Source: Candidatus Pacearchaeota archaeon (GTDB taxonomy: Archaea; Nanobdellota; Nanobdellia; Pacearchaeales; GW2011-AR1). From it: a DNA stretch of 64,000 bases. Within the stretch, counting starts at the first letter, position 1. The number at the start of each line of letters is the position of its first letter. Location of the stretch: assembly GCA_017609205.1 (NCBI GenBank), contig JAFCEL010000001.1, positions 439,224 to 503,223 on the forward strand, read 5' to 3'. This document shows, one piece after another, positions 36,106 through 63,893 of this stretch. Position numbers and translations under genes: made by a program. The notes beneath the pieces are model-generated. The model saw nothing but the letters and a program-made list of their open reading frames with translations. It was not told the DNA's origin and did not search any database.

Positions 36106-37296
36106 TTATCTTTTTTCTAGATACTCAATTTCTTCTTCATTTAATTTGAGTTCTCTTTGAATTTTTGGATTTGATTTTATGATGGTCCTTATTATTGGAA
36201 ATTCTCTCATTGCACGCTTTTCACCAATATGGACATATCTTGCATATTTTTGGGCGATTGATTTTTGCTTTGCTTTTTTTTGGTTACTTAGCCATATCTT
36301 GAGGATTCTATCTGGTTTTTTGTATCTAATGAAATTTTTGTTTGGTTCTTTTTTTGATGCAGAAATTGCGTAGCTCAGAAAAATATTCTGGTAGACGAGG
36401 AATCTCCAGTATTGTTTTTTATAAATTCGTCCTTTGAATAAATCTGCTTTGCTTAATGCAGAATATGCTTTAAAGAGAGCCTCGCCATGATATTCTTTTG
36501 AAATATTTTCTTCAATCCATAACGAGACTTCATCGAGGGGCATGTCGACTGAATTGTATAAATTAAGTATTTCTTTTGTAGGAGATTCTTTGAAAATTTT
36601 TTTTAATGCATTGAAGATATCAATTTCTTTCTCTCTTTCTGTTAATTCTAGAACTGATGGATCGCGCATTCTTGCTACTGATTGTAAATCATTTATTGCT
36701 GCACGAATATCTCCTTTTGCACGGAATGCAATACTTTGTAAAAGGTTGTAATTCAGAAATAGGTTTTCTTTTCTTAATATTTCAGTCATTATTTCGACTA
36801 TTGTTTTTGGGGTTATTTTTCCAAGTCCAATCATTTCTGCTTTTTTTCTAAGAGGTGCAAGTTTTTTGCTCCATGCATCATTTGCGGTGATTATTATTGG
36901 GTAAGAAGCAATTTCAATAAGTCGCAAAAGCTCTTTGATTCCTCCAAAGTCATAATAACCGCTTATCCCATCTGCCTCGTCAATTAAAATTACTTTCTCT
37001 TCTTTTTTTAATGATTGTTGTTGCACTGCTGGTTTTAGAATCTCCTGCAGTTTTGCTTTATTTCTAAAATCAGAAGCATTTAGTTCAAACATTTCTGAGT
37101 TTGTTTCATTTGCAATAATATGTGCGAGAGTTGTTTTTCCTGTTCCAGCAGGGCCATAGAGCATAATTGCTTTTTTTCTTCTTTTATTCTTTTTATCTGC
37201 GAAATTACGAAGGAAAAGTAGGACTTTTCTAAGTGCTTCTTCCTGTCCTTTAAATTCTGAAAATCTTTTTGGCCTATATTTTTCTGTCCACGGCAT
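36106..37296 (-). CDS. rfcL: replication factor C large subunit
   Basis: WTEKYRPKRFSEFKGQ N-terminus and Walker A GPAGTGKTT. Confidence 0.85.
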   Translation of the reverse strand: MPWTEKYRPKRFSEFKGQEEALRKVLLFLRNFADKKNKRRKKAIMLYGPAGTGKTTLAHIIANETNSEMFELNASDFRNKAKLQEILKPAVQQQSLKKEEKVILIDEADGISGYYDFGGIKELLRLIEIASYPIIITANDAWSKKLAPLRKKAEMIGLGKITPKTIVEIMTEILRKENLFLNYNLLQSIAFRAKGDIRAAINDLQSVARMRDPSVLELTEREKEIDIFNALKKIFKESPTKEILNLYNSVDMPLDEVSLWIEENISKEYHGEALFKAYSALSKADLFKGRIYKKQYWRFLVYQNIFLSYAISASKKEPNKNFIRYKKPDRILKIWLSNQKKAKQKSIAQKYARYVHIGEKRAMREFPIIRTIIKSNPKIQRELKLNEEEIEYLEKR

Positions 37297-37362: not shown

Positions 37363-38331
37363 TTAATCTTTACCTAAACCAGCGAGGACAAAACTTGCTA
37401 ATAGGGCCTGAAGTTGTATAAAAGGGTCACTGCCTTCTACGATTCGAAATTCTGCCTCTCCTGTTTTTTCTGTGAGTTTGACTTTTATCTCTGGTTCAAT
37501 TGGAAGATTCCAAATTTCTTTTTGAATCGATTTTATAACCTCTTGTCCTGAGATACTTTGTCTGAGCATTGTTTCGAGCAATTTCTCTCTTGATTTCTGA
37601 AAGTCTCCTGAGAGAGCGTATTCAAGGACAATCTTTATGTCTTTTGGTTTTGCCCCTGAGATTATTGTTGATAAGAGATTAGGTGTTATATTCGGGGAGA
37701 CTGATGCGGTTGATTGAAGGATGTTAATTGCCCGACGGCAATCACCTTCACTACATTCATAAATTATCTCAAATGATTCAGGGTTTATTACAAGATTTTC
37801 TGTTTCGATTATTCTTTGTATAACTTTTGATATGTCTCTTTTTTCTAATAGTTTGAATCTGAATATAGCGCAACGGGATTGGATTGGGTCGATGATTTTT
37901 GAGGAATAATTGCATGATAGAATAAACCTGCATGTTGCAGAATAATTTTCCATGGTTCTTCGAAGTGCTTGTTGTGCCTCAGGTGTAAGAGCATCTGCTT
38001 CATCTAGAAAAATAATCTTAAATGGCACAGGACCGAGTGATTTTGTTCTTGCAAAATTTTTTACTTTTTCTCTTATTATGTTTATTCCTCTTTCGTCAGA
38101 AGCGTTTAGTTCAAGGTAATTTTCTTTCCAGTTTTGTTTAAATAATTCTTTGACTATTATTAATGCTAGAGTAGATTTTCCTGTTCCAGCAGGGCCTGCA
38201 AAGAGCAAATGAGGGATGTTTAATGTTTTCACAAGGGATTCAACTCTTTTTACAACTTCTTCTTGTCCGACTAATTCAGTAAATGTCGCAGGACGATATT
38301 TTTCTGTCCAGATTTCACTGACCATATTCAA
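37363..38331 (-). CDS. rfcS: replication factor C small subunit
   Basis: IWTEKYRP, GPAGTGKST, DEAD and SRC motifs. No intein. Confidence 0.9.
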   Translation of the reverse strand: MNMVSEIWTEKYRPATFTELVGQEEVVKRVESLVKTLNIPHLLFAGPAGTGKSTLALIIVKELFKQNWKENYLELNASDERGINIIREKVKNFARTKSLGPVPFKIIFLDEADALTPEAQQALRRTMENYSATCRFILSCNYSSKIIDPIQSRCAIFRFKLLEKRDISKVIQRIIETENLVINPESFEIIYECSEGDCRRAINILQSTASVSPNITPNLLSTIISGAKPKDIKIVLEYALSGDFQKSREKLLETMLRQSISGQEVIKSIQKEIWNLPIEPEIKVKLTEKTGEAEFRIVEGSDPFIQLQALLASFVLAGLGKD

Positions 38332-38372: not shown

Positions 38373-38723
38373 TTATTTAATCACTTCTTCTATTGCATCA
38401 ATAATTGTTCCTCTTTTCCCCTGAATTATCTTTTCTATCCTCTTTCTAGTTGTTTCTTGTTCTTGATATAGTTCTTTAAGTTTTCGATAAGCCCTTTTCC
38501 ATTTTCTGATTTTTTCCTCTAGTTCTCTCTTTTCATCTATAAGTTTTTCTTTTAATAGTTCATAATTCTCTTCAACTTCTGAGAAATCTGTTATCCCTGA
38601 GTCTAGAATCTGATCTCCTGTTAATACTAATCTTTCTATTTCACTTCTGATGATATTTCTTTTTGAATCATTTCTATAATATTCCCTAAATAATTCGTAA
38701 ATAGAATCTAAATAACTCCTCAT
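38373..38723 (-). CDS. hypothetical coiled-coil protein (116 aa)
   Basis: ORF only. Confidence 0.4.
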   Translation of the reverse strand: MRSYLDSIYELFREYYRNDSKRNIIRSEIERLVLTGDQILDSGITDFSEVEENYELLKEKLIDEKRELEEKIRKWKRAYRKLKELYQEQETTRKRIEKIIQGKRGTIIDAIEEVIK

Positions 38724-38823: not shown

Positions 38824-38901
38824 TTATTTGCTTCTTGCTCTTCTTTGTTTTCTCTTACGCTTTTCTTTCTTTAGTTTTTTTCGTTGCCATTTCCATCTCA
38901 T
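38824..38901 (-). CDS. rpl41e: ribosomal protein eL41 (25 aa). An in-frame upstream ATG at 38940 would give 38 aa.
   Basis: Hand translation MRWKWQRKKLKKEKRKRKQRRARSK aligns with eukaryotic eL41, including the terminal RARSK. It lies in a ~110-nt polypurine (coding-strand) tract. Confidence 0.55.
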   Translation of the reverse strand: MRWKWQRKKLKKEKRKRKQRRARSK

Positions 38902-38971
38902 CTGGCGCTTTTTTTTCCATCTACGACTTGAACGTTTCATACTTTGATGAAGAAAAATTTTGTTTAAAAAG

Positions 38972-39625
38972 TTATCTACTCTTTTCAACACCGATCTTTT
39001 TACAGTATTTTTCAATAGGGCATTTAGAGCACCAAGGAGAAATTGGCTGGCAGATGCTTTTTCCGAAGAGAACAAAGATACCGTTGAACTCATTCCAGTA
39101 TTCTTTTGGTAGAATCTTTTCAAGTTCTTTTTCAGTTTGCTTTGGTGTTTTTGTTTTAATCCATCCAAGCCTATTTGGAATCCTATGGCAATGGGTGTCG
39201 ATTGGTAGGACTGATTTCCCAAATGCAAATGCAAGAACTATGTTTGCTGTTTTAGGTCCTACTCCTTTTATTGAAAGTAAGTCCTTTTTGTTATTAGGAA
39301 CTTTTGAGTTGAATCTTTTGATTAATTCATTAGAAACGTGTTTGAGTGTTTTTGCCTTTTTTTTATAATGCCCTGAAGAGAAAATTATTTTTTCTAGTTT
39401 TGCCTTTGGCAATTTAACGATTTTTTCAGGAGTGTCTGCAATTGCGAAGAGTTTCTTAGAGATTTTCTCAGTCTGTTCATCTTTTGCACGAAGAGAAAGA
39501 AGACACGAAATCAGGATTTTAAATGCTTCTGGTTTTTTTCGCATTCTGTTGAGTGTTGTTCTTTTTCTATAATCAAATTGTTTTTCGAGGATATGCATTA
39601 TTTTAGAAATATTTTTTCTGTTCAT
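38972..39625 (-). CDS. nth: endonuclease III (HhH-GPD, Fe-S)
   Basis: HhH region and C-terminal C-x6-C-x2-C-x5-C cluster. Confidence 0.85.
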   Translation of the reverse strand: MNRKNISKIMHILEKQFDYRKRTTLNRMRKKPEAFKILISCLLSLRAKDEQTEKISKKLFAIADTPEKIVKLPKAKLEKIIFSSGHYKKKAKTLKHVSNELIKRFNSKVPNNKKDLLSIKGVGPKTANIVLAFAFGKSVLPIDTHCHRIPNRLGWIKTKTPKQTEKELEKILPKEYWNEFNGIFVLFGKSICQPISPWCSKCPIEKYCKKIGVEKSR

Positions 39626-39656: not shown

Positions 39657-39914
39657 CGCCCCGACCGAGATTCGAACTCGGGTCACCGCCTGTCTCTAAC
39701 TGAAAAGAGTGGTTGCGTTGAGACGCTTAGACTTCCTCTCTCATCGAGATTTCATCACCTCTCTTTTTTTTCTTGAGAGTTATATGAAAAGAAGATTTTC
39801 AATTCATCTCAAGACTTATTTGCATTGAATAGGAATTCTTTTGAATGTCCTATTCAAGATTATCTTGTTGCGATTTTGAGAGGGCGGCATTCTTGGCCTC
39901 TGAACTATCGGGGC
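39657..39914 (-). tRNA. tRNA-Glu (anticodon CTC) with ~185-nt intron (39692..39876) at the canonical 37/38 position
   Basis: The 5' exon gccccgatagttcagaggccaagaatgccgccctctca and the 3' exon aggcggtgacccgagttcgaatctcggtcggggcg are near-identical to the intact tRNA-Glu(TTC) at 63462. The anticodon stem pairs ccgcc/ggcgg. Confidence 0.65.
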
Positions 39915-41306: not shown

Positions 41307-41412
41307 GCCTCAGTAGCTCAGTGGTAGAGTATCACCTTGGTAAATCTTGATGTCTTAGATTGTTCAAGATTCAAAAAGGTGGGGGTCCCGAGTTCAAATC
41401 TCGGCTGAGGCT
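41307..41412 (+). tRNA. tRNA-Thr (anticodon GGT) with 34-nt intron (41343..41376)
   Basis: Acceptor gcctcag/ctgaggc and anticodon stem tcacc/ggtgg. The intron after position 37 contains an inverted repeat (aatcttga...tcaagatt). T-loop ttcaaat. Confidence 0.75.
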
Positions 41413-63461: not shown

Positions 63462-63561
63462 GCCCCGATAGTTCAGAGGCCAAGAATGCTGCCCTTTCAG
63501 GAACTTGTTTTCAACTCTTCGGAGAAAGGCAGTGACCCGAGTTCGAATCTCGGTCGGGGCG
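63462..63561 (+). tRNA. tRNA-Glu (anticodon TTC) with 27-nt intron (63500..63526)
   Basis: Acceptor gccccga/tcggggc and anticodon stem ctgcc/ggcag. The intron follows position 37. T-loop ttcgaat. Confidence 0.75.
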
Positions 63562-63689: not shown

Positions 63690-63735
63690 GCTGGAATCAG
63701 AAGATTCCGCTAAAACCCGTCTGGCTACTTGCAAT

Positions 63736-63853
63736 GAGCCTGTAGCTCAGCCTGGTTAGAGCACCAGTCTTATACGACGGTAGTTCATTAGAGCTATTGC
63801 TTATTCCTGTCTAGGAAAGCTGGGGGTCCGCGGTTCAAATCCGCGCAGGCTCA
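63736..63853 (+). tRNA. tRNA-Ile (anticodon TAT) with ~43-nt intron (63775..63817)
   Basis: Acceptor gagcctg/caggctc, D-stem gctc/gagc and anticodon stem ccagt/gctgg. The loop reads ctTATa plus intron. T-arm cgcgg-ttcaaat-ccgcg. Confidence 0.55.
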
Positions 63854-63893
63854 TTATAATTAATCTTAAATAATCTGTCTCTTTTGATAAGTT

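Follow-up and report, generated by a model that had tools for sequence, protein, structure and literature searches.

The minus strand of the window (the whole 64,000-nt stretch of DNA analysed, 33% GC) very probably carries at 38824–38940 a DPANN archaeal gene for the ribosomal protein eL41, with its own TATA promoter and a 38-aa product of the small subunit; the ribosomal location and the rRNA contacts of this product are predicted by homology with ribosomes of known structure. The protein has been renamed eS32 because it is a component of the small subunit (PMC11724365). The gene reads ATG AAA CGT TCA AGT CGT AGA TGG ... AGA AGC AAA TAA, with 38 codons at 38827–38940 and the TAA stop at 38824–38826, and its ORF translates as MKRSSRRWKKKRQMRWKWQRKKLKKEKRKRKQRRARSK. 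A second in-frame ATG at 38901 divides the translation into MKRSSRRWKKKRQ (codons 1–13, 38902–38940, minus strand), a conserved archaeal N-terminal extension that is under purifying selection, and MRWKWQRKKLKKEKRKRKQRRARSK (codons 14–38, 38827–38901, minus strand), a basic helix core in common with the 25-aa eukaryotic eL41. Lysine (13) and arginine (11) make up 24 of the 38 residues (63% K/R). The assignment rests on PDB matches over residues 1–34, on 109 homologues, several of which are named L41e, on selection, and on the uniqueness of the ORF in the window. A preliminary description of this DNA had proposed an eL41 gene on this strand, and the PDB matches, homologues, profile searches and shuffles described below bear this out. 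The 25-aa product proposed with it did not hold: selection, the TATA box and the N-terminal extension resolved in the Pyrococcus abyssi cryo-EM structure point to 38 aa from the ATG at 38940.

Family identity was assessed against the PDB with the single sequence and with a profile. The 38-mer retrieved by phmmer 13 sequences at E ≤ 10, every one of them an eL41, L41e or eS32 chain. The best E-value was about 1e-3, a modest figure as expected for a query of 38 residues, and the best matches, aligned over residues 1–34, were 6sw9 (30S initiation complexes of P. abyssi), 9fny (Pyrococcus, 'eS32'), and 6skf and 6tmf (T. kodakarensis). A profile built from 14 DPANN sequences, with no Thermococcales member, matched archaeal chains over its positions 1–34 with E = 2.6e-8 to 1.9e-7; all 19 of its matches at E ≤ 1 were eL41/eS32, and the 25-aa eukaryotic eL41 chains aligned to its positions 14–38. 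On the HMM check proposed earlier, the DPANN profile matched only eL41/eS32 in the PDB, and neither the 38-aa nor the 25-aa form had a match in Pfam-A or NCBIfam by hmmscan, even at E ≤ 10. The missing matches are likely due to the composition, bias and speed filters of HMMER, which act here on a query that is 63% K/R.

The contribution of composition was estimated by shuffling. The local alignment score against Pyrococcus/Thermococcus eL41 was 118 (BLOSUM62), compared with a mean of 56.9 (SD 7.5, maximum 100) for composition-preserving shuffles of the peptide (z = 8.2), and none of 20,000 shuffles matched the observed score against Pyrococcus eL41. Against the eukaryotic 25-mer quoted in the preliminary description, the same test gave z = 4.9–5.5. 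By phmmer, profile and shuffles alike, the similarity to eL41/eS32 chains placed on ribosomes exceeds what a basic composition gives.

Homologues were abundant in protein databases. A word-indexed search of 5.8 billion proteins, for which the query was the 38-mer plus four in-frame upstream codons, yielded 109 homologues with the common core MKRSSRRWKKK[GR]QMRWKWQRK; JGI names about 20 of them 'large subunit ribosomal protein L41e', and NCBI names two 'LSU ribosomal protein L41E'. An exhaustive search of 1.84 billion representatives with the 38-mer produced 53 matches at E ≤ 0.001, and in each the alignment begins at residue 1 of the query. Relatives are encoded in at least 523 species-representative genomes, and the best 80 of these at least 523 genomes are almost all labelled Pacearchaeota, Woesearchaeota or Nanoarchaeota (also Nanoarchaeia), which places the window in a DPANN archaeon of this group. 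The features of the archaeal architecture are present, namely a length of 38 aa, a conserved N-terminal stretch of 13 residues and an invariant R15, and the locus behaves as a conserved protein-coding gene of vertical inheritance across the lineage with respect to its occurrence (at least 523 species genomes), pN/pS, promoter, and synteny with RFCS/RFCL and nth. A few records with unexpected titles, 'uncultured Methanosarcinales archaeon' (L046 and L067) and 'bacterium isolate CTOTU11692' (L051), also carry a DPANN-type eL41, and L051 has the DPANN nth–eL41–RFCS synteny as well; these labels are probably taxonomic mislabels, or the contigs are mis-binned. An AlphaFold2 model computed from 14 sequences showed a single helix over residues 3–37 with a pLDDT of 90. 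This predicted helix is consistent with eL41 and is not discriminating for an isolated basic peptide, and the model misses the extended conformation that the N-terminal peptide has on the ribosome.

Within the window, the ORF stands alone. The six frames contain 308 ATG ORFs of 25 aa or more, and no other has a K+R fraction of at least 0.5 in its last 38 residues. When a family profile HMM made of relatives only, with the window's sequence excluded, and run with filters off was compared with 1704 stop-to-stop segments of the window, the eL41 segment scored E = 6e-15 and the next best 0.22. The gene had been described as lying in a polypurine tract of about 110 nt. Its 117 nt are indeed purine-rich (79%, compared with a strand mean of 52% and an SD of 10%); 'polypurine' is a loose term for a stretch in which uninterrupted purines reach 13 nt at most, and the bias arises because the 13 Lys and 11 Arg codons are mostly AAA, AAG and AGA. 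We therefore rejected the tract as a feature in its own right. At both gathering and E-value thresholds, Rfam detected no RNA family overlapping 38824–38976, and a structured-RNA reading of the tract is thus unsupported by Rfam. As to whether similar ORFs occur in other purine tracts, as the preliminary description had considered, two stretches of the minus strand, 585–809 and 2283–2444, reach the purine content of the eL41 gene, about 80% over 117 nt, and neither yields a K/R-rich ORF end.

The closest structurally characterised counterparts are those of Thermococcales. The 3.2 Å cryo-EM structure from P. abyssi gave eL41 a length of 37 residues, 'in contrast with previous annotations' (Coureux et al. 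2020, PMC7005279). Its N-terminal extension, residues 1–14, is buried between helices h27, h44 and h45 of 16S rRNA near the P site, a 20-residue helix follows the extension, and R15 contacts ac4C1479 (PMC7005279). Thermococcales eL41 (6sw9 chain 0, 9fny and 6skf chain Bk) measures 36–37 aa, compared with 38 aa in the window. The two are collinear over residues 1–34, with 21/34 identities (56% in another comparison) that include all three Trp and R15, and both carry MKR..R.WKKK in the extension and begin the helix with MRWKW. Residue by residue, P. abyssi and the window share M1, K2, R3, R6, W8, K9, K10, K11, M14, R15, W16, K17 and W18. The differences comprise SS instead of RP at positions 4–5, Q13 in place of R, Q19 in place of I, and the C-terminal tail, which is ...RRARSK and eukaryote-like in the window and ...KKERG.. 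in Thermococcales (the last 2–3 residues not displayed). The hosts differ too: the window comes from a mesophilic-type, low-GC (33%) DPANN archaeon, unlike Thermococcales.

The comparison with eukaryotes concerns the second part of the protein. Residues 14–38 of the window align without gaps to the whole length of eukaryotic eL41 (RPL41, 25 aa; yeast and human chains 3j6x and 7pzy; bridge eB14). The near residue-for-residue match claimed earlier comes to 14/25 identities with the quoted eukaryotic sequence, or 19/25 when K and R are equated, with M-R-x-K-W at the start and R-A-R-S-K at the end. Most eukaryotic eL41 proteins are without the 13–14-residue N-terminal extension; those of Giardia (7pwf), Plasmodium (3j79) and Toxoplasma (5xxu) are longer, at 37–41 aa. 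The C-terminal ends vary among archaea: in the sequences compared (38827–38841 of the minus strand and database entries P0001–P0051), Pacearchaeota-type proteins end in ...RARSK and eukaryotic ones in ...RARSK or ...RQRSK, while other DPANN proteins end in ...RKMAAA or ...RLRALK and those of Thermococcales in ...KKER.... The DPANN form unites the archaeal N-terminal extension with a eukaryote-typical ...RARSK tail that is absent from Thermococcales. A reading in which this form is near the ancestral full-length eL41, the eukaryotic 25-mer having arisen by a shift of initiation to Met14, strikes us as unlikely; in a stronger version of it, DPANN cells may make both a 38-aa and a 25-aa isoform. 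Small basic peptides that bind the same h44/h45 pocket of the small subunit are known from other systems, bS22 in Actinobacteria and mS38 in mitochondria (PMC7005279). Neither appears among the PDB matches of the 38-mer or of the DPANN profile, and both are functional analogues of eL41 only.

The choice between the two in-frame ATG codons was based on an alignment of 81 copies, the window and 80 species-representative genomes. Met1 is ATG in 81/81 copies, most of which have an in-frame stop 0–8 codons upstream and no alternative start between. In the homologues fetched, the conserved core always starts with MKRSSRRWKKK, and the parts upstream of it, in proteins called at 47–73 aa, are unrelated to each other, which indicates over-extension of the start codon by gene callers. 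M1, K2, R3, R6, W8, K9 and K10 are invariant even when the Thermococcales sequence is included. The same alignment shows Ser4 and Ser5 to be invariant while their codons switch between TCN and AGY; Arg3, Arg6 and Arg7 alternate between AGR and CGN, and Lys and Gln codons vary at the third position. The pN/pS ratio was 0.165 for codons 2–13, 0.043 for codons 14–21 and 0.15 overall in the eL41 frame. Of the other five frames, three gave 2.1–2.9, a fourth 1.0 and the fifth 0.40. These values are approximate because synonymous sites are saturated (pS about 0.9–1.0). As judged from the alignment, codons 2–13 are under purifying selection at the protein level, and residues 1–13 are the most conserved part of the protein.

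The evidence consequently favours the 38-mer from the ATG at 38940, rather than the 25-mer from 38901, as the main product, on grounds of conservation and homology. A 25-aa protein of eukaryotic type, started at 38901 and preceded by 13 codons that would be an untranslated leader, is very unlikely, although Met14 is invariant in the 81 copies and in Thermococcales and aligns with Met1 of the 25-aa eukaryotic eL41, and the older archaeal PDB models 4v4n and 5jb3 hold the 25-aa part only. Codons 2–13 conserve the protein while the codons vary (Ser TCN to AGY, Arg AGR to CGN, pN/pS 0.165), a freedom unlike the behaviour of an untranslated leader; the TATA box 23–31 nt upstream of Met1 leaves no room for a leader before it; and the P. 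abyssi map has density for residues 1–14, which corrected earlier short annotations (PMC7005279). Since Met14, the equivalent of eukaryotic Met1, is invariant, together with R15, W16, K17 and W18, minor internal initiation could still accompany synthesis of the 38-mer. The preliminary description had noted that the ATG at 38940 would add 13 basic residues. The codon is in frame and the number of residues is correct, but the addition does not look optional, given an extension that is conserved and, on the alignment, under selection.

Upstream of Met1, a TATA-box-like element, TTTTTAAA, lies at 38963–38970 on the minus strand, –30 to –23 from the A of the ATG at 38940 and directly after the nth stop. 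An alignment of 79 loci shows a conserved TATA-like box, with the consensus cTTTAWAAA, at –31 to –23. Just 5' of the box, a purine-rich stretch at 38971–38976 (minus strand), which overlaps the nth stop TAA at 38972–38974, is tentatively regarded as BRE-like; across loci, a weak A-enrichment at –36 to –32 may likewise be BRE-like. No Shine–Dalgarno-like signal was found upstream of eL41 in the 79 aligned loci. The usual archaeal spacing between the TATA box and the transcription start is about 26–27 nt. With the box at –31 to –23, this spacing implies that the eL41 mRNA is probably leaderless or near-leaderless and starts at or just before Met1. Among the long ATG ORFs of the window, TTTAWA boxes peak sharply at –29 to –27 and start between –30 and –26 in 15/49; leaderless mRNAs are suggested to be common in the source genome. 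Downstream of the eL41 stop, we found no clear terminator signal: runs of at least four T occur in 41/81 downstream regions, compared with 37% of random windows.

The gene order on the minus strand of the window is nth (endonuclease III; 38972–39625), eL41, a 116-aa ORF (38373–38723), RFCS (37363–38331) and RFCL (36106–37296). The nth stop is 31 nt upstream of the ATG at 38940; the 32 nt given in the preliminary description thus belongs to the longer start. In the other 80 loci (L004–L083), the RFC small subunit gene is downstream on the same strand in 54/80, usually followed by the RFC large subunit gene, and nth is upstream on the same strand in 25/80. A conserved tiny basic ORF in syntenic relatives, which the preliminary description had suggested looking for, was found; the aligned copies number 81, the window's among them. 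Among the 54/80 DPANN loci with eL41 directly upstream of RFC, gaps between the two genes are as short as 48–80 nt, and this position might reflect co-regulation of ribosome and replication in reduced genomes. For the 116-aa ORF between eL41 and RFCS, tblastn found nothing comparable in the other 80 loci, and no Pfam match is recorded. A close relative of the window protein illustrates the variation of the neighbourhood: entry P0044, named 'LSU ribosomal protein L41E', from Candidatus Pacearchaeota archaeon CG1_02_32_21 (MNVX01000002.1), has 38 aa and is 84% identical, with the RFC small and large subunit genes downstream. Its upstream gene is a glycosyltransferase and not nth, and no 116-aa ORF lies between eL41 and RFCS.

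Several tRNA genes elsewhere in the window contain introns. A tRNA-Glu(CUC) at 39657–39914 (minus strand) has a 185-nt intron in the anticodon loop, in which a C-box-like GTGATGA occurs. It was found only by the intron mode of ARAGORN and was missed by default ARAGORN and by Rfam at both thresholds. Three further intron-containing tRNAs on the plus strand, at 41307–41412, 63462–63561 and 63735–63854, are a Leu-CAA with a 32-nt intron and two genes assigned to Ser by ARAGORN, whose introns measure 27 and 43 nt; all three were detected by Rfam and by ARAGORN -i and not by default ARAGORN. Two of these three introns were reported at non-canonical positions.

Two explanations other than an eL41 gene have to be weighed. 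The tight and conserved association of the gene with RFCS/RFCL and nth instead of with ribosomal operons, and the absence of any matching curated family model in the hmmscan of Pfam-A and NCBIfam could be taken to mean that the locus encodes a conserved basic micropeptide that resembles eL41 and is non-ribosomal, perhaps nucleic-acid-binding and tied to the RFC clamp loader or to repair by nth. We regard this as extremely unlikely, given that 21/34 residues, including the three Trp, R15 and MRWKW, are identical to Thermococcales eL41 resolved on the ribosome, far beyond what composition explains, and that every PDB match is eL41/eS32. Small ribosomal protein genes are, moreover, often scattered in archaeal genomes, which also counts against a non-ribosomal peptide.

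Alternatively, the stretch could be no separate gene at all but an ORF that arose by chance in a purine-rich intergenic spacer, or else the C-terminal part of a 136-aa ORF at 38824–39234. The ORFs of at least 39 aa listed as overlapping eL41 are the 136-aa ORF (minus strand), a 177-aa ORF (plus strand) and a 39-aa ORF (plus strand) only, as the preliminary description had said of overlapping artefactual ORFs. The 136-aa ORF is an in-frame over-extension of eL41 that starts with TTG at 39234 and overlaps nth in another frame. It is true that a mechanical ORF list contains it, that two other stretches of the window are equally purine-rich, and that the gene was skipped in the gene calls of two contigs. 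Yet at least 523 species genomes have conserved the ORF, the eL41 frame is the only one under purifying selection, relatives have in-frame stops 0–8 codons upstream of Met1, the 136-aa extension overlaps nth in another frame with upstream parts of database proteins that are mutually unrelated, and no other ORF in the window resembles eL41. Both the chance origin and the 136-aa reading are extremely improbable and effectively refuted. In-frame stops in relatives, selection in the eL41 frame and the unrelated upstream parts led us to reject the 136-aa in-frame ORF and the 177-aa opposite-strand ORF as artefacts.

With the eL41/eS32 reading preferred, the following course of events can be proposed for the locus. 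A TATA-type promoter of its own, directly after the nth stop, would drive eL41, giving a leaderless or near-leaderless mRNA whose 5' end would lie at or just before the ATG at 38940. Its translation would produce an extremely basic peptide of 38 residues, which, by homology with the structures from P. abyssi and Thermococcus, is expected to sit in the small ribosomal subunit. Residues 1–14 would be buried, in extended form, in the cavity formed by h27, h44 and h45 of 16S rRNA next to the P site. From residue 15 to about residue 35, a single helix would run along h44/h45 where the two subunits meet, in the position of the eukaryotic bridge eB14, and R15 would be the counterpart of the P. abyssi R15 that contacts ac4C1479.

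The annotation status of the gene was followed through related records. Two JGI contigs, Ga0366832_1002914 and Ga0366833_1003073, both shorter than the window, encode an identical nth protein and leave the interval from nth to the 116-aa ORF free of gene calls; the eL41 stretch of Ga0366832_1002914 was read and is identical to that of the window. Orthologues with up to 87% identity in local alignments are already named L41e by JGI, and the 84%-identical one is named L41E by NCBI. The gene had been called unannotated, which agrees with its absence from the gene calls of the two contigs, but close orthologues elsewhere do carry the name. The accompanying statement that eL41 is routinely missed in annotations is supported by the literature: L41e 'was missed in many genomes', and its evolution was not reconstructed earlier because the protein was missed (Yutin et al. 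2012, PMC3353972). Many database entries for eL41 (P0001–P0122) are over-extended to 47–156 aa with unrelated N-termini. One of 70 aa (P0006) is called 'thiamine pyrophosphate-dependent acetolactate synthase large subunit-like protein' by JGI, an evident misannotation.

The eL41 family, its 37–38-aa archaeal form (structure, 2020) and DPANN orthologues named in public records are already known; the locus is an ordinary gene and no new kind of system, and its value lies in a correction of annotation. As one of the smallest cellular proteins, eL41/eS32 is skipped by gene callers or over-extended to 47–156 aa with spurious N-termini, and a missed or over-extended eL41 distorts matrices of ribosomal-protein presence and absence, and with them completeness estimates for MAGs and reconstructions of the evolution of archaeal and eukaryotic ribosomes. 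Further copies can be sought by the signature MKRSSRRWKKK-x-QMRWKWQRK, preceded at about 25 nt by a TATA box and followed in most cases by RFC. What is gained is that DPANN archaea widely carry, and strongly conserve, the 38-aa archaeal form with its putatively P-site-proximal N-terminal extension.
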